Assembly: GCA_039189765.1 (NCBI GenBank)
Contig: JBCCYL010000002.1
Location: 64,001-128,000 of the forward strand
Source: Cyanobacteria bacterium P01_F01_bin.150
Lineage (GTDB): Bacteria > Cyanobacteriota > Cyanobacteriia > CAKZMO01
Reading direction: 5' to 3'
Length of the DNA stretch: 64,000 bases
Shown: piece after piece, positions 15,155-25,769 of the stretch
Position numbering within the stretch: the first letter of the stretch is position 1
How the letters are laid out: each line of letters begins with the position of its first letter
The notes under the pieces: model-generated
Database searches by the model: none
The model's input: the letters and a program-made list of their open reading frames with translations, nothing else
What the model was told of the DNA's origin: nothing
Translations under genes and position numbers: made by a program

Positions 15155-15772
15155 ATGAGCAATAGTCGGGAGGAGAATCCGATGGTTAGCGTCACAGCGC
15201 GCTCGATGTCGTTTGAGGACTATCTGACCTATGAGGATAAAACAGATAACCGCTATGAATGGATTGATGGAGTATTGGTTCAAATGCCGCCAGAGTCGGA
15301 ACCGAATGCATGGCTTGCGTTAGCTCTACAGCTTTACTTTATCAATACGGGTTTGGTAAAACCTCGTTTAACCCATCGTTACAACTGCGAGATCGAAGTG
15401 CCTACGTTTAAGACCCAACAGCCGCGTAACCGCTTTCCCGATTTTGTGATTTTGCAGCCAGAACATATTGCGCTGACCCAAAAGCGATTGACCATTCGTA
15501 TGGAGATGCCACCACCACTCTTTGTGATGGAAGTGGTCAGCCCTGGTTCCAGCAATCGAGCGCGAGATTATAAGGATAAACGCCAGCAGTATGAGGCACT
15601 GGGGATTCCAGAATATTGGCTCCTTGATCCTGAACAGCAACAAGTTACAGTGTTGTCCCTTGAAGATAATGGATACAGAGAAAGATGCTTCAAAGGTAAT
15701 CAAATTATCCGATCGCCACTCTTTCCCGCATTTTCTCTAACCGCACAACAAGTCCTCAATCCGCCGGAGTAA
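15155..15772 (+). CDS. Uma2 (DUF820) PD-(D/E)XK-family endonuclease
   Basis: YEWIDGVLVQMPPES, RFPD, EVVSPG, DYKDKRQQYEALGIPEYWLLDP. Confidence 0.92.
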   Translation: MSNSREENPMVSVTARSMSFEDYLTYEDKTDNRYEWIDGVLVQMPPESEPNAWLALALQLYFINTGLVKPRLTHRYNCEIEVPTFKTQQPRNRFPDFVILQPEHIALTQKRLTIRMEMPPPLFVMEVVSPGSSNRARDYKDKRQQYEALGIPEYWLLDPEQQQVTVLSLEDNGYRERCFKGNQIIRSPLFPAFSLTAQQVLNPPE

Positions 15773-15883: not shown

Positions 15884-16495
15884 TTAACTAAATTCAGCAA
15901 TTAAGCGATCTACTTCAATTTTTAAGCCTGGCATTGTGGATAGGGCGATCGCATCCCCTTCTCCATACTCTGTACGAATATAGCTGCCATCCTCAGCACG
16001 GCTTCTGACAATAATGGATTTATTCTGCCGATCGATGGACATATACTCACCCACTCCCCGGTGCCAATATTCTGCGTCTTTATCTTCTAAATCGGTTTTG
16101 ACGGATGAGGGAGAGAGGACTTCTACCACCAAAATAGGGGCTGGCATATCCCAGGTAATCGTATCCAGATTATCGGCACTAAGCTGCATTGCTGTATCGT
16201 AGGAAATCACGAGTAAGTCTGGAATTCGCCCTCGATGTTTACTGTGGCGGACTTCGACCTCTAATTTGCCTCCGAGACAGAGCCACTGCTCACCATTCTC
16301 GGAAATCCAAGCATCTATTAAATCCATCAGACGCTCGGCAATAAGGGAATGCAAAAAGCCTTCTTTACCTACGGTTACTACCTCGCCATCTTCCCATCGA
16401 AAGTTGTGCCATGGAATTTGACTGCGATCGTAACGTCGTAGTCTGTAGTCGTCCCATGACATCAATATTGTGGTGGGCCGAGTAGAAATATTCAT
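15884..16495 (-). CDS. Uma2 (DUF820) family endonuclease
   Basis: RIPDLLVI, PAPILVVEVLSPSS, DLEDKDAEY..GVGEY. Confidence 0.88.
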   Translation of the reverse strand: MNISTRPTTILMSWDDYRLRRYDRSQIPWHNFRWEDGEVVTVGKEGFLHSLIAERLMDLIDAWISENGEQWLCLGGKLEVEVRHSKHRGRIPDLLVISYDTAMQLSADNLDTITWDMPAPILVVEVLSPSSVKTDLEDKDAEYWHRGVGEYMSIDRQNKSIIVRSRAEDGSYIRTEYGEGDAIALSTMPGLKIEVDRLIAEFS

Positions 16496-16789: not shown

Positions 16790-18091
16790 ATGACTGATAT
16801 TAAATTTTGGAAACCCGCTTATCAGCTCTTTAAGCACGACGTTCCTCTGATGGATGAGGACTTAAAGAACTTTTATGTACGGCGTGATGATAGCCCGGTG
16901 GACAGTTTGGTCACAACCCTCACGATGGAGGATCAGCCTGCCAAATTTTTACTGTCTGGGCATCGAGGCGGCGGCAAAACTACAGAGCTAAAACGATTAG
17001 AGGCTCAATCTTTGGCTGACTACACCGTGGTTTGGGTGGATACGGAGCTATCTCTAGAGCAGTTTAATATTGGCTATGCCGAAGTTATTATCCTGATTGG
17101 CAAAACGATTGTGGAGCGCCTGGCAGAGGTGGGCTGGAAGCTACCGCGCAAGTTGGAGCAGGGACTGTTGGAAAGTTTAGCCAAAGTCACCTATGAGGAT
17201 AAGTTAATCGGGGGCGGCAAGATTGAGTTGCCCAAGCTGTTTACTGATTTGGGGCTATTGCTAAGGGTGGGGTTCGATCGCACGACTACCAGGGTACGGG
17301 AAGTGCGTCCGGCGTTGAGTGATATTGTTAATCGGGTCAATACCATTATTGAGATTGCCGAAGCTGATACGGGAACAAAGCTGTTGGTGATGGTGGATGG
17401 ACTCGATCGCAAGGAGCGTGAGGTGGCTCTGGAAATGTTTTCCAGTTCACTGTTGACCAGTCTAAGCTGCCATATTGTCTATGTTGTGCCTATTTCCCTG
17501 CGCTATTCCACTGCGTTTCAGCAGCCGATGGAGAATTTTAGTGCTTGTTTAGATTTGGACAATATTCCAGTGTTTAAGTGTAATGACCAGCGGCAGCCAA
17601 CGGTGGAAGAAGACAGGGTAGGACGGCATATTCTTAAAAGCGTTATTGCAAAGCGATTAGGAACGTTGGGAGATGCATACAAGGATTTGTTTGCGGCGGA
17701 TGCGCTGGAGCTGATGTGTGAAAAAAGTGGCGGGGTGATGCGGGATTTGGTGCGGTTGGCAAGAATGGCATGTACGGTGGCATCCAAGAAACGGGCTAGC
17801 AAAATTGATGTCGCTATTGTCAAAGACGCGATTCGAGAGGTGCGTCGGATCTATTCGATTGAGGATTACCATTTTCCCGAATTGGTGCTTGTTCATCGGA
17901 CGGGGAAGCGCAGTAGTAATACGTTTGATGTACCCAGCAAGGGAACAATTGTGATTTGCGATGAACTATTGCACCATAGGCTTATCCTTGGATATCGCGA
18001 TCCGGATCGAGGCCGATGGTTCGATGTGCATCCGATTTTGATGGATGATCTCAATCGTTGGCAAGCGGCAAACCCTTCACCCCTTCCGTAG
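16790..18091 (+). CDS. P-loop NTPase (AAA+/STAND-like), no evident effector domain
   Basis: Walker A GHRGGGKT, Walker B LLVMVDGLD, SGGVMRDLVRL, C-terminal WFDVHP. Confidence 0.88.
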   Translation: MTDIKFWKPAYQLFKHDVPLMDEDLKNFYVRRDDSPVDSLVTTLTMEDQPAKFLLSGHRGGGKTTELKRLEAQSLADYTVVWVDTELSLEQFNIGYAEVIILIGKTIVERLAEVGWKLPRKLEQGLLESLAKVTYEDKLIGGGKIELPKLFTDLGLLLRVGFDRTTTRVREVRPALSDIVNRVNTIIEIAEADTGTKLLVMVDGLDRKEREVALEMFSSSLLTSLSCHIVYVVPISLRYSTAFQQPMENFSACLDLDNIPVFKCNDQRQPTVEEDRVGRHILKSVIAKRLGTLGDAYKDLFAADALELMCEKSGGVMRDLVRLARMACTVASKKRASKIDVAIVKDAIREVRRIYSIEDYHFPELVLVHRTGKRSSNTFDVPSKGTIVICDELLHHRLILGYRDPDRGRWFDVHPILMDDLNRWQAANPSPLP

Positions 18092-18095
18092 ACCT

Positions 18096-21000
18096 ATGGT
18101 TTCTGAACTGGTGCCGAATTCTTCGAACCCTATCCCTCCTGTGCCCCTTGAGGCAGAATTGAATGCTGCTGACCAGGAAGAGTTGGCGAATCTGGCAAAT
18201 GTGGTGGCGTTGAGCGATCGCACGGTGGTTTTGTTTGTCATTGCCCCCGATAGTGCGCCGAAGCATCCGGTAACGCTGGCGTTGAAAGCGGAGTTGGCAG
18301 CCTTGGGGGAATCTGAGTTTTTGACGCTGCACTACAGTGATGATTCATTGTTTAAATTTTTGAATCGATTGGATCGGGATGATTCGCCTGAGAACCAACC
18401 CGAACGCCGAGTAGTAATGGCCTTTGGATTGGAGCAGTTGCCGTTGCCTCGGCTGCGCCAGGAGATGCAGCAGTTAAATCTGGGGCGGGAACGGATTTTT
18501 GAGCGCAATTTGGTGCTGGTGTTTTGGCTGAATCGGGAGTCCTTTTTGGATGAGTTCCGTAGCTATGCTGCTGACTTTTGGGACTGGCATACCAGCATTG
18601 CTCGATTTACTACACGTCCTCCTGTGAACCCGCAGCTCTATCCCTATCTGGAATGGATGATTGCCGAAAATTCCCATCTGAAGATGAGCGGGATTATGCA
18701 GGTGAATCGTCAGGTGGATATTTTCCTGGATCAGATTTATGTGTCCCTTAAGGGGGAATGGGTGGAGGTTTCAAGGGAATCGGCAAAGGACCAAGATATA
18801 GCTGAAGAAGATCAAATCGCCAGCTACAGAATTCCGAAAAGAAAAGGATTAGACGCTGGTCTCGTGAATGATCTAGAGCTTTTGAGTCATCAAGAAAAGG
18901 CTTTCCATGACAGTGCAGAATCAGAACAACGGCAAAAGGTATCCCACATAGTGGACTTAGCAGATACTGTGCGATACCACAAACACAGTGTCATTCTGGG
19001 CGATCCGGGGGCGGGAAAGACAACCCTGTTGCGATATTTGGCCCGACATTTTGCTTTAGCTCAGCGAGAGTATGATCCCAATAAGGCGATCGAAAACGTT
19101 AAAGGTGGGCAGCAGGAGGATTTGGGACCGCTGCGATTGCCGATTTTGTTTCGGATTGCTGACTATGCTGAACGACTGGCGACACAACCAGATTTAACCC
19201 TAGTCGGGTATCTGAAGCAGTTTTATCACCAGTGGCAAAATCAGTTTGAGGATGCGGATGGGGAGGCTATTACCCAACTACTGTTGAGAAAAATGGCCCA
19301 GGGGGATTGTCTACTGCTGCTCGATGGGTTGGATGAGGTATTTGACCAGGCCAATCGAGCAGTGGTGGTGAAGCAGATTCAGCGATTGGTGGATGACTAT
19401 GCGGCCAACAAGTTTGTGATTACTAGTCGGCTAGCCGGATATCGAGAAGCGGCGTTGGGTAGTCGCTTTCGAGAATTTACAATCACGCCGATGGATGAGG
19501 CGCAGATTGAGCAATTTTTACAGCGATGGTGTTTGGCGATCGAGGAGGGCCAACGGCCAGATGCTGACAAGACGCTGCAACAGCGGGATGCAGAACGAGA
19601 AACCACAGGCATTATGGCGGCAATTTCCACCAATTCAGGGGTGAAACGGTTTGCGACTAATCCACTGTTGCTGACGATTTTGGCGTTAATTCACCGCAAT
19701 GGGACTCAGTTGCCACAGCGACGAGTGGAGTTGTACGAGTTGGCGGCCAAAACTCTGATTGAAGATTGGCAACAGGGGCGTAATGTTCCTTATGGAGCGA
19801 AACCCCAAAAATTAGTACTCAGGGAAGATGAGGTCACTGAACTGCTGGCCCCCTTAGCGTTTCGAATGCATGCGGAAAAACCGTCTGGCTTAATTGAACA
19901 AGCTCAGGCAGAAGAGTGGTTAACCCCCAAAATGATGGAGCTGTATGGGGTGGAAGAAGGTGCCGCCCTCAAGTTGGTGCGACAGTTTTTGCGTAAGGTC
20001 CGGGAAACCACAGGTTTATTTGTTGAACGTGGTCCGGGAGCCTACGGGTTTATGCATCTCACCTTCGAGGAGTATTTTGCTGCTCGTTACATAGCCGATC
20101 ATGAACGTGATCAAATTTTAGAGATTATTCAATCACACATTTCTGATCCACGTTGGGAAGAGCCTAGTTTACTTGCTTTAAGCTACCTCAAGAAACATTT
20201 TCCTGTTCGGTTTCAAGGTTTGTTTGAGGCTTTATTCAACGACTTGACCCTGCTCGATCAAGAATTATGTTCTCAACAGCAAGGTTCTTATCTAAGAGAG
20301 ATTAAATTTAAGCTGCTTAGATTAAAAAATCGTTTGAACAAAAGAAATAGATTCTATCTTCCCTTAATACAGCCATTGCGTTCCTTTGTTCGAATCGTGA
20401 TGTTATCACCTGTACAGTTTCTGTTAGGACTGATCAATTTCTATACAGAGTTTTTTTTATTTAAGTATGTAACAAGCTTAAGATTCGAAAATTTCAAAAA
20501 AGAGCATAATTATTTCTTCTCAAAAGTCAAGTTAGCGATCTTGGCACTTAAAAATATTGAGATGAGTTGGGCAAGTTTTTCTCAGTTATTAAGAGGAGTA
20601 ATGGCGGCAGAAATTATCTTTGAAAGTTCTATTTTTTCCTCATCTGATTCTAGTCGCCTTCATGTTATTGGAACATGGCTTGAAGATCTACGGGGACTCT
20701 TCTTAGAATCCGCAGAATTATCAAGAACAGATATGGGGTTAGAAGATCTCTTGTCAGACTATCTGAAACTTACCTCTAATGATTTATTGCTAGATCAAAA
20801 AATCCAAGAAAGTTCTCAAAGGATATTTTTTGAACTTTCTAATACGTACTTTAGTTTTTCAGAATCTGAAACGATCGTTGATGTTGTAGAGAGACTCAAT
20901 TTAGACCCCATAGTGAAGACCAGGGCAGTTGCTTATAGTCAAGCAGGGTCTATCTATAAAGAGCATAATAAACATGAAGAAGCTGTTTTTCACTATCAGA

Positions 21001-24000
21001 AAAGTTGTTATTACTATGAAAAGCTAAGAGAAAAACTTGACTTAGTAGAACTTTTTCATGATTTATCTGCTTGTTACCGTGCTTGGAGAAAGTATAAACA
21101 AGCCCTGCGTTGTGAGATGAAAGCTTTAAAGATATGTCAAGAAATTGGGGGAAAGAGAGAGTTAGCAAGAACCTATAATTTTATAGGGATGACTTATGAT
21201 TCTTGGGATAAACACGAGCAAGCGGTTGATTATTATCACAAATCACTCAATGCTTTTCAAGATCTAGAAGACTTAGATTATCAGTCTATTATATGGTCTA
21301 ATTTAGCATTTTGCCATAAAAATTGGGCAAAATATGATAAAGCGATAAACTGCTTAGAAGAATGTTTGGCTTTAGAGAAGAAATTAGAAAATAAATCAAG
21401 AATAGCGGATATTTTTAATAGTTTTGGTAATGTTTATCGTGCTTTGGATAAGTATGAAGAGGCCATCGATTACTACAAAAAAAGTAGTGAAATTTACAAC
21501 GAAACTTCTCAGCATAAAAAACAGGCAGAGCAACTACATGAAATTTCCTTCTGTTATTTATACGATGGAAAACATGAGAAAGCAATACATGCGGCGCAGC
21601 AAGAGTTATCCATACGCCAAGATCTTGATAATCCACTTTACATCGCCATGAGTTACGATCTGATAGCGAAAGGCTATGAGTATTCTAAAAAATATGAGGA
21701 AGCAATTACTCACTACAAAAAAAGTTGCAGCTCCTATGAGCAAGTTAATCGAGATGAGAATATTGCTAAAAACTATACATCTATTGCATCTCTATATTCT
21801 GAACGTAGTAGATATGAAGAATCAATTTTGTATTACGAGAAAAGTGCTAGTATTTACACTCAACTGAACAATTTTCACCAACTTAGAGATCAATTATTCA
21901 ATATATCAGTTTGCTACAGCAAACTAGGTAGGGCAGAGGAAGCCCTAGAAATTCTTCAAAAGAGTCTAAGAATAGCCCAAAAGCAAAATAACATACTAGC
22001 AATAGCCTTTGATTCCTCGTGTGTTGGCACAACTTATAAGACCTTAGGAAAATATAAGCAGGCTATCAAGTTTTATAAGAAAAGCTATGATATCTATAAG
22101 AAAATTAGATTTGAAGAATCCGCTGCCAATAAATGTTTCGACATTTCTGCCTGCTATTCTCACCTAAACCAATTTGACTTAGAGTTGGCATATAAAAATA
22201 AGGAATTGAAAATCAGAGAAAAGCTTGGTGATCAGTCTTTTATTGCTGTAATTCATCGACAATTGGGTCGATTTTATATGCAACAAGAAAAATATAAAAA
22301 AGCAATCTCTAATTATGATAAAAGTCGTATCTGTTATGAGAAGTTAGAACAAGCGGATGATGTGGCATCACAGTGGAATAATTTAGGAATTTGTTATCGA
22401 CGATGTCGTCAATATGAGAAAGCGATTGCCTGTGATATTAATGCTTTAAATATCTGGAAAGAGATTGAGAATAAATCTGAATCGGCTCTTACAAGCGATT
22501 TTATAGGAATTGCATATGATAATTGGGATAAATTTGAGGAAGCTATTGATTACTATAAAACAAGCTACACACAATTTATTGAGTTAGATCAAGAAGATAA
22601 TGCTCTGATAGTTTTGGGAAATCTAGCGAATTGTTGTGAGACACGACAAAAGTATTCGGAAGCCCTAAAGTGGCTTCAACAATGTTTAGTTTTTCAGGAA
22701 AAGCTAGAGCAGAGAGAGGATATCGCGAACACACTCCAGAGGATTGGAGACCTCTATCTTAAGTTACAACAATACGAAGAAGCAATTTCTCATTATGATC
22801 AAAGTCGTATCTGTTATGAGAAGTTAGAACAAGCAAATGATATGGCAACACAATGGAATAATTTGGGCACCTGTTATAGACGGTGTGGTCAATACAAAAA
22901 AGCGATTGACTGTAATAGCAACGCTTTAAATATTTGGACAGAGATTGAAAATGAATCTGAATTGGCTTTTACAAATAATTTTATAGGGATGGCATATGAC
23001 AATTGGGATAAATTTGAAGAAGCTACTAATTATTATCAAATAAGCTACACACGATTTATCGAGTTAGAGCAGGAAAATAATGCCATTATAGTTTTGGGAA
23101 ATCTGGCTAATTGCTGTGAAACACAGCAAAAGTATTCGGAAGCTTTAAAGTGGCATCAGCAATGTTTGGTTTTGCAGGAAAAGCTAGAGCAGAAAGAAGA
23201 TATCGCGAACACGCTCCAGAAGCTTGGTGGTCTCTATCTCAAGTTGCAGCAATATGAGGAAGCAATTGCCCATTATGAAAATAGTCGTGATTGTTATGAA
23301 CAATTGGGACTAGATGATAATATCGCTAATCAATGGCGTAACTTAGCTGACTGTTATATAGAAGGCAGCAGTTATGAGAAAGCAATTGACTGTGCACTTA
23401 AAAATTTAGAGATACGTCGAAAACTTGACGATCCCCAAGCCCTAGCTAAAGCCTATAACTTCGTTGGTATTGCTTGTGACGATGGAAGCCAGTATGAACA
23501 GTCCATTGCTCATTATCAGAAAAGTTGTGAAATATTTGAAACGTTACACCAAACTCATAATGTTGCCACCGTTATGAAGAACATGGCCATGTGCTACGAG
23601 AACTGGGAGAAGTACGAAGAAGCATTAGAGCGTTATCAAAAATGTTTAGTCTTGCAGCAAGAGGCTGATGATAAGGAAAAAGTTGCTAGCACCCATAGTA
23701 GCATTGCACACCTCTATCATGATTTAAAGCGCTATGAAGAGGCTATCCTAAGTTATCAAAGTAGCTGTGAAATTTACCAAGAACTTGGAAATGAAGAAGA
23801 AGCTGCTAGTCTGTGGTTTTGGATCGCACATTCTTATAAGGAATTAGGTGAGCCTAGATTAGAGTTAAAAGCAAAACAAGAGGAACTGTTGGTTCGACAA
23901 AAACTGAACGATTTGCCGGAAATTGCTCAAATATACTCTTGGATAGGACATTTATACCACAAACATAATCAGTATGAAGATGCGATTTCTTATTTTCATA

Positions 24001-25271
24001 AAAGCTCAAATATTTATCAGGACTTAGACGAGGAAAATGATTTTGCAAAGGAGCTTTTGTATCTAGCAAATAGTTACTTTAATCTTGATGATTACACGCA
24101 AGCTCTCCAATACCAAAAGCAAGGCCTAGCCATTCATCAGGCTTATGAAGATATAGAGTGGGTAGCCCTTGCTTTTCGTCAATTAGGTCAAATTTATAAG
24201 GCTTTAGGTCAATATGAAGAAGCCATTAACCAATACCAAGAAAGACGAGAAATCAATCAACAGCTCAAGGAAGACGAAAAAGTAGCTTATGATTGGTCTC
24301 GAATCGCCTCTTGTTACTTGGAGTGGGGTAAAGCTGATTTATTTGTATCTGCTAAGCAGCAAGAATTAGCAATTTATCAGAAACTGGATGTTCAGTCTGA
24401 GATTAAAACACTCCATTTTGAGCTTGGTTCTACTTACCAGAAGTGGGAAAATTATGAATCTGCCATTACTCACTACCAACAAAGTCTTGAAATTGCCGAA
24501 CATCTGGACTTAAAAGATCGCATGGCTTACAGGTTATCTGATCTGGCAGTTTGTTATCGGGCACTGAAAGACTATGAAATGGCGATCGCCCACTATCAAA
24601 AGAGTTTAGACCTACGTCAGGCTTTAGCAGATCATAGAGAAAGTGTTGCTATCCAATATACAGAATTAAGCAACACTAAACGCCTGTGGGCAAAGGAGGT
24701 AGCGCAAGATCAAGCCGTTCCCCTTCTTCAGCAAGCCAATCAACATCTGCAACAAGCATTGCAGCTAGATACTGAAGGGGACTATCGTGGGAATCTGGCT
24801 TACGATCATATCTCCCATGCCCTGTTGATTGCTGAATCCTTGCGTCAGGGGACGGGAAGTAACGAAGTAGTGGGTGACCAAATAGCGGAGTTTCGAAAAG
24901 CATATGAGAAAGGATTTGAACTCTTTGCCGAATTAGATCAGACCGTTAGTAAGGCTGAAGAAGCCTTAGAGATTGCCCGTGCCTATCTGGAAATCGAGCC
25001 ATTGCGGGACTTAGAGCAGGCGGAAAAGCTGGCCCAGCAATCCCTGCAAACCTTCCAAGAGTTTAACCGTCGTAAACCACAAGCCATAGCCTACAGGCTA
25101 TTGGGCGAAATTTCCCTACGGCGCATGGTTGATAAGGGTGAGAATAATGATGATGAGAGGACAATAGCGACTCGATATCTTAACAGCAGCCTTAAAATTT
25201 ACCGTGAGTTGACTATTGATCGGAAGGTTGGAGATTTGGAAGAGCTGTTGGGAAAGGCAGAAAGCAGTTAG
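18096..25271 (+). CDS. Giant NLR-like protein: N-terminal domain + NACHT NTPase + ~30 TPRs (~2,390 aa)
   Basis: LDQIYVSL, Walker A GDPGAGKT, Walker B LLLLDGLDE, ITSR, NPLLL, FMHLTFEEYFAA; ~40-aa periodic TPRs from ~20930; ATG 18096 lies 4 bp after the upstream stop. Confidence 0.92.
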   Translation: MVSELVPNSSNPIPPVPLEAELNAADQEELANLANVVALSDRTVVLFVIAPDSAPKHPVTLALKAELAALGESEFLTLHYSDDSLFKFLNRLDRDDSPENQPERRVVMAFGLEQLPLPRLRQEMQQLNLGRERIFERNLVLVFWLNRESFLDEFRSYAADFWDWHTSIARFTTRPPVNPQLYPYLEWMIAENSHLKMSGIMQVNRQVDIFLDQIYVSLKGEWVEVSRESAKDQDIAEEDQIASYRIPKRKGLDAGLVNDLELLSHQEKAFHDSAESEQRQKVSHIVDLADTVRYHKHSVILGDPGAGKTTLLRYLARHFALAQREYDPNKAIENVKGGQQEDLGPLRLPILFRIADYAERLATQPDLTLVGYLKQFYHQWQNQFEDADGEAITQLLLRKMAQGDCLLLLDGLDEVFDQANRAVVVKQIQRLVDDYAANKFVITSRLAGYREAALGSRFREFTITPMDEAQIEQFLQRWCLAIEEGQRPDADKTLQQRDAERETTGIMAAISTNSGVKRFATNPLLLTILALIHRNGTQLPQRRVELYELAAKTLIEDWQQGRNVPYGAKPQKLVLREDEVTELLAPLAFRMHAEKPSGLIEQAQAEEWLTPKMMELYGVEEGAALKLVRQFLRKVRETTGLFVERGPGAYGFMHLTFEEYFAARYIADHERDQILEIIQSHISDPRWEEPSLLALSYLKKHFPVRFQGLFEALFNDLTLLDQELCSQQQGSYLREIKFKLLRLKNRLNKRNRFYLPLIQPLRSFVRIVMLSPVQFLLGLINFYTEFFLFKYVTSLRFENFKKEHNYFFSKVKLAILALKNIEMSWASFSQLLRGVMAAEIIFESSIFSSSDSSRLHVIGTWLEDLRGLFLESAELSRTDMGLEDLLSDYLKLTSNDLLLDQKIQESSQRIFFELSNTYFSFSESETIVDVVERLNLDPIVKTRAVAYSQAGSIYKEHNKHEEAVFHYQKSCYYYEKLREKLDLVELFHDLSACYRAWRKYKQALRCEMKALKICQEIGGKRELARTYNFIGMTYDSWDKHEQAVDYYHKSLNAFQDLEDLDYQSIIWSNLAFCHKNWAKYDKAINCLEECLALEKKLENKSRIADIFNSFGNVYRALDKYEEAIDYYKKSSEIYNETSQHKKQAEQLHEISFCYLYDGKHEKAIHAAQQELSIRQDLDNPLYIAMSYDLIAKGYEYSKKYEEAITHYKKSCSSYEQVNRDENIAKNYTSIASLYSERSRYEESILYYEKSASIYTQLNNFHQLRDQLFNISVCYSKLGRAEEALEILQKSLRIAQKQNNILAIAFDSSCVGTTYKTLGKYKQAIKFYKKSYDIYKKIRFEESAANKCFDISACYSHLNQFDLELAYKNKELKIREKLGDQSFIAVIHRQLGRFYMQQEKYKKAISNYDKSRICYEKLEQADDVASQWNNLGICYRRCRQYEKAIACDINALNIWKEIENKSESALTSDFIGIAYDNWDKFEEAIDYYKTSYTQFIELDQEDNALIVLGNLANCCETRQKYSEALKWLQQCLVFQEKLEQREDIANTLQRIGDLYLKLQQYEEAISHYDQSRICYEKLEQANDMATQWNNLGTCYRRCGQYKKAIDCNSNALNIWTEIENESELAFTNNFIGMAYDNWDKFEEATNYYQISYTRFIELEQENNAIIVLGNLANCCETQQKYSEALKWHQQCLVLQEKLEQKEDIANTLQKLGGLYLKLQQYEEAIAHYENSRDCYEQLGLDDNIANQWRNLADCYIEGSSYEKAIDCALKNLEIRRKLDDPQALAKAYNFVGIACDDGSQYEQSIAHYQKSCEIFETLHQTHNVATVMKNMAMCYENWEKYEEALERYQKCLVLQQEADDKEKVASTHSSIAHLYHDLKRYEEAILSYQSSCEIYQELGNEEEAASLWFWIAHSYKELGEPRLELKAKQEELLVRQKLNDLPEIAQIYSWIGHLYHKHNQYEDAISYFHKSSNIYQDLDEENDFAKELLYLANSYFNLDDYTQALQYQKQGLAIHQAYEDIEWVALAFRQLGQIYKALGQYEEAINQYQERREINQQLKEDEKVAYDWSRIASCYLEWGKADLFVSAKQQELAIYQKLDVQSEIKTLHFELGSTYQKWENYESAITHYQQSLEIAEHLDLKDRMAYRLSDLAVCYRALKDYEMAIAHYQKSLDLRQALADHRESVAIQYTELSNTKRLWAKEVAQDQAVPLLQQANQHLQQALQLDTEGDYRGNLAYDHISHALLIAESLRQGTGSNEVVGDQIAEFRKAYEKGFELFAELDQTVSKAEEALEIARAYLEIEPLRDLEQAEKLAQQSLQTFQEFNRRKPQAIAYRLLGEISLRRMVDKGENNDDERTIATRYLNSSLKIYRELTIDRKVGDLEELLGKAESS
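22291..23250 (+). repeat. Intragenic tandem duplication, 2 x 480 bp (4 TPRs each)
   Basis: AAAGTCGTATCTGTTATGAGAAGTTAGAACAAGC at 22321 and 22801; other matches keep the 480 offset. Confidence 0.9.
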
Positions 25272-25306
25272 ATTTTGGATTTTAGATTTTAGATTTTGGG
25301 TTTTGG
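25270..25306. repeat. Heptamer tandem repeat [A/G]GATTTT ~5x (reverse complement of the 9784 array)
   Basis: agattttggattttagattttagattttgggttttgg at the NACHT gene stop. Confidence 0.8.
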
Positions 25307-25375: not shown

Positions 25376-25769
25376 CTAGAAGTCTTCTGGGTCCAATCCC
25401 ATTTGGCGTAATCGTGCCGCTAGCTGTTCTGCCCGTTGCAATGCGATTTGTTCTCGTTGTTGGGCGGATTCTCTGAGCGATCGCTCCTCCTCCAACGCTT
25501 GCTGAACTGACTGATTGAGCGATCGCTCCTCCTCCAACTGTTGCTGGGCCTCTTCTTCAGGTAGCAGAACTAAAGCTCCACTTTCGGTAAAGAATCACAA
25601 TTTATCACCATTGTGCAGCCCCACAAAAAGCTCCATCTGGTCACTCCACAACTGACCATTATCGTTGGGCTGTAGCTCCTGATATTGACCATTGATGAGG
25701 GTAAAGCCTCGAAACTCCTTTGTTTCGGGATGGAGCCAAAAATAATTCGATACCTGCCACTCGTCTTGG
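25376..25769 (-). pseudogene. 3' fragment of a Uma2-family gene with an in-frame TGA
   Basis: Manual translation QDEWQVSNYFWLHPETKEFRGFTLINGQYQELQPNDNGQLWSDQMELFVGLHNGDKL*FFTESGALVLLPEE...RAEQLAARLRQMGLDPEDF*; 5' half absent. Confidence 0.85.

Follow-up and report, generated by a model that had tools for sequence, protein, structure and literature searches.

The gene pair described here occupies positions 16790 to 25271 of a window of 64,000 nucleotides (nt), which is the whole stretch of DNA analysed, from Cyanobacteria bacterium P01_F01_bin.150 (assembly GCA_039189765.1, contig JBCCYL010000002.1, positions 64,001 to 128,000 of the forward strand). Gene 1 encodes a small ATPase, and gene 2 a giant protein with a NACHT NTPase module and a long array of TPRs. 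An initial annotation of this DNA had taken the two for a bipartite NLR-like system. Here, we describe a further domain at the N-terminus of gene 2, predicted to be an inactive AAA+ core and hereafter called iAAA, and show that this domain is what the ATPase is linked to, both in this genome and in its cyanobacterial relatives.

Domain organisation of the two proteins

Gene 1 and its conserved parts are placed in the window as follows.

16790..18091, + strand: gene 1, an open reading frame (ORF) of 433 amino acids (aa) with an ATG start; predicted ORC/Cdc6/TnsC-like AAA+ (minimal STAND-like) ATPase
16958..16981, + strand: Walker A, GHRGGGKT, aa 57-64, from the translation
17381..17407, + strand: Walker B, LLVMVDGLD, aa 198-206, from the translation
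17726..17749, + strand: lid-domain motif SGGVMRDL, aa 313-320, within helices 303-333 of the model
17852..18088, + strand: conserved C-terminal domain, aa 355-433, with invariant residues in the alignment

The motifs that the initial annotation had read in a 433-aa ATPase are all in the translation, WFDVHP being found at aa 410-415. In an alignment of 18 relatives (A1), which was used both for counting invariant residues and for the AlphaFold2 (AF2) model, the invariant residues are G57, H58, R59, G60, G62, K63 and T65 at Walker A, and V202, D203, G204, L205 and D206 at Walker B. S313, G314, G315, R318 and L320 are invariant in SGGVMRDL, which may be a sensor-2-like motif, and D359, Y360, G372, G385, W410, F411, D412, P415 and W424 are invariant in the C-terminal domain. 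The model, with a predicted template modelling score (pTM) of 0.70, has a P-loop alpha/beta core, helices inserted between the two Walker motifs (aa 96-194), a helical lid that carries SGGVMRDL and a poorly modelled stretch of 80 aa at the C-terminus. Its best matches in the PDB by Foldseek are Cdc6/Orc1, TnsC, mS29 and RdrA, with expectation values (E) of 1.8e-7 to 7e-6; they include 7jgr_G (Cdc6/Orc1, 1.8e-7), 2qby_A (Cdc6/Orc1) and 7ufi_1 (TnsC). At fold level, gene 1 has the core, the lid and the nearest structural neighbours of an ORC/Cdc6-type AAA+ protein. Because of these neighbours and the invariant Walker A and B, the model would make gene 1 an active-looking ORC/Cdc6/TnsC-type AAA+ module with little beyond the nucleotide-binding module, and with neither a sensor nor an effector domain.

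Family models give gene 1 sub-threshold scores. Pfam nSTAND_NTPase5 (PF25199) reaches 21.8 bits against a cut-off of 34, over aa 38-88 only, and the NCBIfam Sll1717-family model 24.9 against 75; a precomputed PF25199 match is carried by many close relatives of gene 1. KAP NTPases are defined by a transmembrane insert in the P-loop domain. Their model (PF07693) has no match in gene 1 at E<=0.01, and it is carried by Nostocales relatives of gene 1 and by Atlas clusters. PADLOC returned nothing for gene 1, and its C-terminal domain has no Pfam match at E up to 1.

Gene 2 follows on the same strand.

18089..18098, + strand: gene junction, TAG (18089-18091), 'acct', then ATG at 18096
18096..25271, + strand: gene 2, 2391 aa, in the order iAAA, NACHT, variable helical region, TPR array, conserved TPR-like cap
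18156..18620, + strand: iAAA domain, aa 21-175, a predicted ORC-like alpha/beta core of AAA+ type that lacks Walker A and Walker B
18621..18950, + strand: linker, aa 176-285, a conserved pre-NACHT segment MQVNRQVDIFLDQIYVSL and then a variable spacer (alignment A2)
18951..20195, + strand: NACHT NTPase module, aa about 286-700, by Pfam NACHT and NPHP3_N and by its motifs; 49-74% identity across loci
18999-19022, + strand: NACHT Walker A motif, GDPGAGKT, aa 302-309
19311-19337, + strand: NACHT Walker B motif, LLLLDGLDE, aa 406-414
20196..20975, + strand: variable middle region, aa 701-960, with a BLAST match in only 1 of 77 loci
20976..24542, + strand: TPR array, aa 961-2149, Pfam TPR_12 on 15 stretches (E 8e-145), roughly 30 TPRs
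22300..23299, + strand: recent tandem duplication in the TPR array, a 480-nt unit in 2.1 copies, 84% identical
24543..25268, + strand: conserved C-terminal 242 aa, TPR-like cap, aa 2150-2391, in the relatives' ORFs of 56 of 77 loci

From the order TAG, 'acct', ATG at the junction it follows that the stop of gene 1 lies 4 nt ahead of the ATG of gene 2, as had been annotated for a protein of about 2,390 aa. An alternative in-frame ATG at 18045 (ORF 18045..25271, + strand, 2408 aa) is also a possible start.

The N-terminus of gene 2 (residues 1-285) has no Pfam match. In an AF2 model built from an alignment of 30 orthologues (A2), the block-mean predicted local distance difference test (pLDDT) is 84-97 over aa 21-170 and low past aa 215; the first 20 or so residues are not kept among relatives. 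The top Foldseek matches listed for this domain are of AAA+ type (RAD17-RFC, Rif2, NSF, clamp loaders and Hda; E about 1e-5). At the position of the P-loop the sequence reads APDSAPKHP, and at that of Walker B, AFGLEQL. The model would therefore have aa 21-175 as an inactive (degenerate) ORC-like AAA+ core, to which the name iAAA refers, and a name and a fold can now be put to an N-terminal domain that has no model in Pfam, NCBIfam or PADLOC. Invariant or near-invariant residues of the domain include N128, R131, N146, R155 and the block D160-F161-W162-D163-W164 (A2). Judged from the positions of the strands in the model, N146 may stand at a sensor-1-like and R155 at an arginine-finger-like place. 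With a degenerate core of this kind in gene 2, an active and an inactive AAA+ module would thus be paired.

Two other relations between the proteins were considered. That iAAA is a diverged copy of gene 1 was rejected, as hhalign of A2 against A1 gave a probability of 0.15 and no similarity. A pairing through amyloid motifs, of the kind of the NLR-associated amyloid signalling motifs in the title of bioRxiv 2020.01.06.895854, was also considered; where gene 1 ends and gene 2 begins, no short motif common to the two proteins was seen by eye, and no formal motif search was made.

The rest of gene 2 agrees with the initial annotation, which had read intact NACHT motifs and about 30 TPRs. Pfam NACHT (PF05729) passes its gathering cut-off of 26.7 bits with a score of 32.3, which places the module in the NACHT clade of STAND NTPases. 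The middle region (aa 701-960) has no Pfam match at E up to 1. The TPR array is 29-40% identical to that of relatives and varies in length among orthologues; complete downstream ORFs that share the architecture of gene 2 range from 1051 to 2433 aa. For the cap, identity is 42-59%, and its end lies at most 27 aa from the ORF C-terminus (in the 25 rows listed of the 56 loci). The Atlas clusters nearest to it are TPR proteins, and Pfam TPR matches only its first 36 aa. An effector hidden in these C-terminal 242 aa was rejected on account of the TPR proteins among its Atlas neighbours and of Pfam matches to TPR only. A membrane span in gene 2 was rejected too, there being a single marginal hydrophobic window (aa 764-782, Kyte-Doolittle maximum 1.73) that is not kept in relatives.

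Genetic linkage between the ATPase and iAAA

That the ATPase and the iAAA domain belong together came from the relatives of the pair. We took 77 loci from 316 relatives, one genome per species; 76 of them are labelled as cyanobacterial and one as from an 'uncultured bacterium'. Where at least 900 nt lie downstream of the ATPase (68 loci), an iAAA orthologue, 44-66% identical, follows directly on the same strand in 65, a NACHT module in 66 and TPRs in 63. The three loci without iAAA (L066, L071 and L077) carry truncated ATPase matches of 230, 183 and 88 aligned residues, respectively, and look like remnants of deletions. The two genes lie within +/-50 nt of each other in 37 of 66 loci, as estimated from BLAST offsets and not from mapped start codons. 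When the neighbouring ORFs of all 77 loci were clustered, only the two genes were widely shared (75 and 69 loci), the next families reaching at most 22.

At two loci (L071 and L073), an N-terminal fragment of the ATPase runs straight into the NACHT module of the partner, and at a third (L077) it runs straight into the partner's terminal TPRs; all three look like deletion derivatives.

At least 248 homologues of gene 1 were found at E<=0.001, and the 120 matches listed are 54-70% identical, 384-540 aa long and cyanobacterial where named. With so many homologues of gene 1, and with the pair found again in 65 of 68 loci, both are real genes and not chance ORFs.

The same linkage is seen among the paralogues within this genome (10.6 Mb in 350 contigs), over which hidden Markov models made from the alignments were run on all ORFs of at least 90 aa. 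Gene 1 has 12 matches here: the window copy, a copy on contig C211 that is 56% identical, and 10 paralogues that are 26-31% identical. The scan found 12 ATPase ORFs and 12 iAAA ORFs, and behind 11 of the 12 ATPases an iAAA ORF comes next, on the same strand; the twelfth ATPase ORF is a fusion protein on contig C49. The partners differ in what follows the iAAA domain. Two are of NACHT type (the window copy and that on C211), seven carry TPRs, then nSTAND1 and then a further region, one is TPR-only (377 aa), and one, cut by the end of contig C335, is unclassified. The N-termini of the nSTAND1-type and NACHT-type partners are homologous (hhalign probability 96.9%, E 1.5e-10, 143 columns) and have the motifs N-x-x-R-E and APDF-x-W in common. 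The trees of 11 ATPases and of 10 N-termini share a (C2, C211) clade, a basal C3a pair and a (C52, C140) pair. The other nodes are weak, and so the trees lend only modest support to co-divergence of ATPase and iAAA.

Two irregularities were seen among these modules. The twelfth iAAA ORF is an extra copy (E 2e-39) in a 197-aa ORF at C3:35544-36134 (- strand), about 1 kb beyond the C3 partner. In the pairs on C7 (L090) and C52 (L094), a short ORF (190 aa and 126 aa, respectively) and up to 1.7 kb lie between the ATPase and its iAAA partner, and these short ORFs may be insertions.

Genetic linkage is thus of the ATPase with the iAAA domain, not with the NACHT-TPR protein as such, and it is near-obligate. 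The initial annotation had proposed that homologues of the ATPase be examined for linkage to partners that have the N-terminal domain in common, and such partners follow in 65 of 68 loci and in 11 of 12 cases in this genome. The pair is a two-gene cassette conserved in filamentous cyanobacteria and part of a wider class of ATPase plus iAAA-tagged partner.

How wide this class could be is suggested by a profile search with iAAA in 1.84 billion representatives, which gave 370 matches at E<=0.001 and 21 at E<=1e-30. Among the 36 of 150 matches listed that were scanned with Pfam, iAAA is followed by NACHT in 21 (14 with HEAT repeats, 2 with FGE-sulfatase and 5 with nothing further), by TPR only in 10, by NB-ARC and TPR in 1, by TPR/HEAT with EAD7 in 1 and by a RES domain in 1; the remaining 2 have no Pfam family behind iAAA. 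No relative of the iAAA-RES protein (P0204) was found in a metagenome scan.

The ATPase, too, has been joined to other partners. On a plasmid of Nostoc sp. C057, an ATPase at the level of an orthologue, 54% identical to gene 1, forms aa 552-973 of a 'SAV_2336 N-terminal domain-related' protein, encoded directly after a MoxR family ATPase. A similar arrangement is found on contig C49 of this genome (L095, 47500-54291), where a 1004-aa ORF directly behind a MoxR-like gene fuses SAV_2336-N (NF041121 at aa 17-484, E 1e-132) to an ATPase paralogue (aa 582-998); Pfam found nothing in the NF041121 region. A third fusion, P0272 (1251 aa, on a single 6-kb contig), has an unassigned N-terminus, another NACHT (28% identical) and an ATPase 54% identical at aa 826-1249. 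Since it is fused in these three proteins, the ATPase is a portable module that has repeatedly been wired to STAND and MoxR-type machinery.

Beside the fusion on C49 stands a convergent gene on the opposite strand that matches the NCBIfam EACC1-associated caspase (E 4e-29, 101.5 bits, below the cut-off of 140). An EACC1 two-gene system was considered for this caspase and rejected, EACC1 being described as a single-transmembrane domain in the accessible text of PMC7159879.

More distant relatives are found on two conjugative plasmids of Acaryochloris. On each, an ATPase 22-23% identical (tblastn) overlaps a large downstream gene by 4 nt, and the two partners, a 1290-aa WD40 protein and a 1920-aa protein, both begin with iAAA (E about 1e-61). 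The neighbours include CHAT, NB-ARC and TIR genes on one plasmid and HicAB and integrase genes on the other.

Genomic surroundings and possible role

Of 200 other genomes spread evenly over the phylum, 6 have an orthologue (E<=1e-60), among them 1 of 8 genomes in one genus and 1 of 5 in a second; one of the orthologues from the 200-genome sample carries an internal stop. In the ATPase tree the orders cluster, but not cleanly, with 4 changes required for Nostocales and 2 for Coleofasciculales. Two divergent ATPase copies are present in Calothrix NIES-4105 and two in this genome, and the copy on C211 is 79% identical to that of an Egbenema genome.

Directly upstream of gene 1 in the window are two genes of the Uma2 family.

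15155-15772, + strand: Uma2-family (PD-(D/E)xK) endonuclease gene, Pfam E 5e-32
15884-16495, - strand: Uma2-family (PD-(D/E)xK) endonuclease gene, Pfam E 2e-23

Genes of PD_DExK type adjoin the pair in two further loci (L002 and L004) of those whose neighbourhoods were scanned with PADLOC. The Uma2 family is very abundant in cyanobacteria, and the adjacency may for that reason be a coincidence.

The non-coding sequence and the base composition were also inspected. Scans for promoters and terminators gave counts no higher than in shuffles. A tandem heptamer, GATTTTG, in about 5 copies begins at the stop codon of gene 2 (window 25268-25306), and a 22-nt direct repeat, gagcgatcgctcctcctccaac, occurs in two copies at window 25475-25538, each with the palindrome GCGATCGC in it, which we take to be the HIP1 motif. 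The G+C content is 0.35-0.36 over window 20001-24000, compared with 0.44-0.51 around it. This dip coincides with the part of the TPR array that is rich in lysine, glutamate, asparagine and tyrosine, and is putatively explained by amino-acid composition and not by a foreign insert.

What could be the role of an ATPase so closely tied to an inactive relative of its own fold? The reading that we prefer, and to which we give about an even chance, is a conflict system of NLR-like kind whose inactive AAA+ domain serves as a docking site for the small ATPase. The TPR array would bind a trigger, most likely an invader protein, and the NACHT module would oligomerise. The iAAA domains clustered in this way could then bind the small ATPase, or act as its template, by a contact between AAA+ modules, for which the inactive subunits that stand beside active ones in ORC or in clamp loaders may serve as a model; N128, R131 and R155 of iAAA may contribute to the interface. 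The ATPase would be the common output or checkpoint and, by analogy with its structural neighbours, may act by ATP-dependent assembly on DNA. Output, checkpoint and sensor are all roles that it could have.

An immune or conflict role is plausible, and we would put it at roughly evens from the architecture, the distribution and the neighbourhoods of relatives. Pointers to it are the patchy orthologues, the plasmid-borne distant relatives and the TPR array of variable length with its 480-nt duplication. The initial annotation had read the pair as a bipartite sensor with a partner ATPase. The linkage on which that reading turned is strong, and hetero-assembly has gained an anatomical basis in iAAA; the immune role is inferred, and the part of 'helper' is a guess.

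Several observations weigh against a conflict system of this kind. Neither protein has a nuclease, TIR, SIR2 or protease domain by Pfam, PADLOC or NCBIfam, as had been annotated, and a permissive Pfam search (E up to 1) found no effector in aa 350-433 of gene 1 or in aa 18-180, 701-960 and 2150-2391 of gene 2; the output step is therefore a guess. As there is no profile similarity between the ATPase and iAAA, the argument 'same fold, so they pair' comes from structure prediction only, and the C-terminal domain of gene 1 (aa 355-433) is poorly modelled, with pLDDT < 50. Conservation of gene 1 is high for a defence gene, both among the homologues listed (54-70%) and across loci from several orders (51-71%). 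PADLOC on the pair gave only a generic 'TPR' model, mad8 (E 2.8e-5) and PDC-S39 (E 2.4e-4), and apart from such matches, which are generic TPR or weak P-loop ones, no model fits. The neighbours of the pair in the window are ordinary genes and the two Uma2 endonucleases. The ATPase is preceded at close range in 22 loci, on its own strand, by two genes, one actin-like (ParM/ALP) and one of 159 aa (for example L042:6983-8140, ALP by Pfam ALP_N, E 2e-16, and L075:8135-8614, the 159-aa gene, with no Pfam family); they may be further parts of the cassette or neighbours by synteny only. QueC-like and other ordinary-looking clusters recur near the pair in 15-16 loci. When 109 neighbouring ORFs within 9 kb in 18 of the 77 loci were checked with PADLOC, a plausible known or candidate defence neighbour was found in only 4 of the 18, a count made without a control: SoFic (L006), Hhe/PDC-S37 (L016), PDC-S17 (L062) and IetA (L068), the remaining matches, apart from the PD_DExK genes of two loci, being generic.

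Part of this evidence would suit a non-immune regulatory scaffold, that is, a signalling or assembly machine, for example in differentiation, envelope or complex control, whose TPRs bind host proteins and whose two NTPases act as a switch. The identity of 51-71% across orders, the 22 loci with one and the same upstream gene pair, the QueC-like and ordinary-looking clusters nearby, the lack of an effector domain and of a PADLOC match, and the retention of the TPR-like cap in 56 of 77 loci are all consistent with it, and the accessible text of Lee et al. (bioRxiv 10.64898/2026.01.04.697583) has non-immune STANDs, such as NPHP3 and transcription regulators, interspersed with defence clades. We nevertheless consider a scaffold unlikely. 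Orthologues are patchy, with 6 of 200 sampled genomes having one, 12 paralogous modules with swapped partners are present in this one genome, and relatives sit on conjugative plasmids among TIR, CHAT, NB-ARC or HicAB genes; the module is moreover shared with MoxR- and caspase-linked genes and occurs in one iAAA-RES fusion. A selfish or mobile-element function, be it as a TnsC-like transposition regulator or as an addiction module, is very improbable in our view. TnsC is among the best structural matches of gene 1 and some relatives lie on plasmids beside integrases or insertion sequence (IS) elements, but no transposase or mobile-element family recurs beside the pair in the 77 loci, where only the pair itself is widely shared (75 and 69 loci), and 22 loci keep the same upstream genes.

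The remaining two alternatives keep the immune role and assign the parts differently. In one, the ATPase is a chaperone or reset factor that loads, holds or recycles the giant protein by iAAA as a handle, as MoxR does for vWA, and the effector is elsewhere or host-derived. Strict linkage and close gene spacing fit a stoichiometric partner of this sort; some partners of the ATPase are iAAA-TPR proteins that lack an NTPase themselves, and in the iAAA protein with a RES toxin domain that domain would itself be the effector. AAA+ chaperones have been described as threshold-setters in systems of vWA-MoxR type (Kaur et al. 2020, PMC7159879, accessible text). The structural neighbours of gene 1, however, are initiator and transposition AAA+ proteins (ORC, Cdc6, TnsC) and not of unfoldase or MoxR type, and the fused ATPase forms the C-terminal part, after a MoxR-associated protein that already has a gene for a MoxR-like ATPase as its neighbour, so that we regard a chaperone as unlikely too, a touch more so than a scaffold. 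Reversed roles, with the ORC-like ATPase sensing foreign DNA or a nucleotide signal and the giant NACHT-TPR protein as an amplifying platform, seem decidedly improbable to us. The ORC, Cdc6 and TnsC relatives bind DNA according to their structure titles, inactive or basal STAND modules have been proposed as nucleic-acid receptors (Kaur et al. 2021, PMC8195603, in the part accessible), and in P0272 the ATPase is C-terminal to NACHT, the usual position of a sensor. It is the variable and duplicating TPR array, on the other hand, that looks like a diversifying sensor, the ATPase being the most conserved part, and iAAA stands at the N-terminal adaptor position of gene 2.

The meaning of an NLR-like conflict system with a docked ATPase, if it is one, would go beyond this locus. 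Bacterial NLR-like proteins are usually read as single-chain machines of sensor, switch and effector. Here is a class without effector, whose members have a dead AAA+ core in the effector's place. Genetically, this core is inseparable from a small ATPase of ORC-like type, with 11 pairs in this genome; among relatives are proteins with a NACHT, nSTAND1 or NB-ARC module and others that have no NTPase module at all. If the two proteins bind, this would show a signalling route for 'effector-less' NLRs and a new kind of adaptor that works by AAA+-AAA+ contact, the known kinds being death folds and EADs. A still wider idea, which we put forward tentatively and think more doubtful than the docking itself, is that ATPase and iAAA represent a general unnamed adaptor principle. 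The dead ORC-type core would be a 'death-fold equivalent' that plugs varied sensors (NACHT-TPR, TPR-nSTAND1, WD40, HEAT, FGE-sulfatase and TPR-only proteins) into one ORC/TnsC-like executor, which would assemble on DNA and arrest the cell. If that were true, prokaryotes would have a sensor/helper NLR network made of replication-initiator parts.

Comparison with described systems

The initial annotation had asked whether the pair matches a system already described. No PADLOC model fits it, NCBIfam EruA reaches 51 bits against a cut-off of 1000, and a literature search around nSTAND5, Sll1717, SAV_2336 and KAP NTPase with NACHT gave no description of an ATPase-iAAA pair; the supplementary tables of Lee et al. 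and Kaur et al. may list the clade.

Among single-chain systems, the bNACHT proteins (Kibby et al., bioRxiv 2022.07.19.500537) resemble gene 2 in having NACHT, a C-terminal repeat sensor and a three-part NLR-like layout, and, in the accessible text, many paralogues in multicellular cyanobacteria. They differ in that gene 2 has a strongly conserved operon partner and an inactive AAA+ core in the N-terminal slot, where bNACHT and Avs proteins normally have an effector domain fused to the STAND module. Compared with Avs/AVAST as presented in the accessible text of Lee et al. 2026 (PMC13581612), the pair has no Avs match in PADLOC. An effector of nuclease, protease or SIR2 type is missing as well, and the system would need its second ATPase gene.

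The vWA-MoxR ternary systems (Kaur et al., eLife 2020) share with the present system the link to MoxR, as relatives of gene 1 are fused C-terminally after a MoxR-like gene, and, as far as the accessible text goes, both are enriched in multicellular bacteria. The window locus itself, in contrast, has no MoxR, vWA or VMAP gene (window 9000-33000), and MoxR neighbours are found only at the paralogous or fused copies.

Closest in logic is the nSTAND2 system (Kaur, Iyer, Burroughs & Aravind, eLife 2021, PMC8195603). According to the accessible text, it is a two-gene operon of an active and an eroded NTPase of ORC/STAND type, the inactive one with GT4/HEPN, for which a hetero-toroid is predicted. 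The present pair is likewise an operon with one active-looking module, its Walker A and B being invariant, and one eroded module that lacks both; in both systems the parts joined to the inactive module vary, and for nSTAND2 a hetero-oligomer is predicted. The differences lie in the families and in the architecture. Both nSTAND2 proteins are of the nSTAND2 family, as far as that text describes them, whereas the active protein here belongs to another family, with a weak nSTAND_NTPase5/KAP-like signal. There is no GT4 or HEPN and no profile similarity between gene 1 and iAAA, nSTAND2 itself having been compared by its description. Further, the inactive core is here a 155-aa N-terminal tag on a protein with a second, active STAND NTPase, either NACHT or nSTAND1, and TPRs, and with no effector.

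In paired NLRs of plants and animals, such as NAIP-NLRC4 and the NRC helpers, one NTPase protein senses and a second is recruited to execute. The likeness is one of analogy only, since those pairs consist of two full NLRs of one family and the present pair of a bare ORC-like NTPase module and a protein whose dead AAA+ core is the proposed docking site. If the two proteins bind each other, they would be a bacterial counterpart of sensor/helper NLR pairs, and one that can be tested with two proteins.

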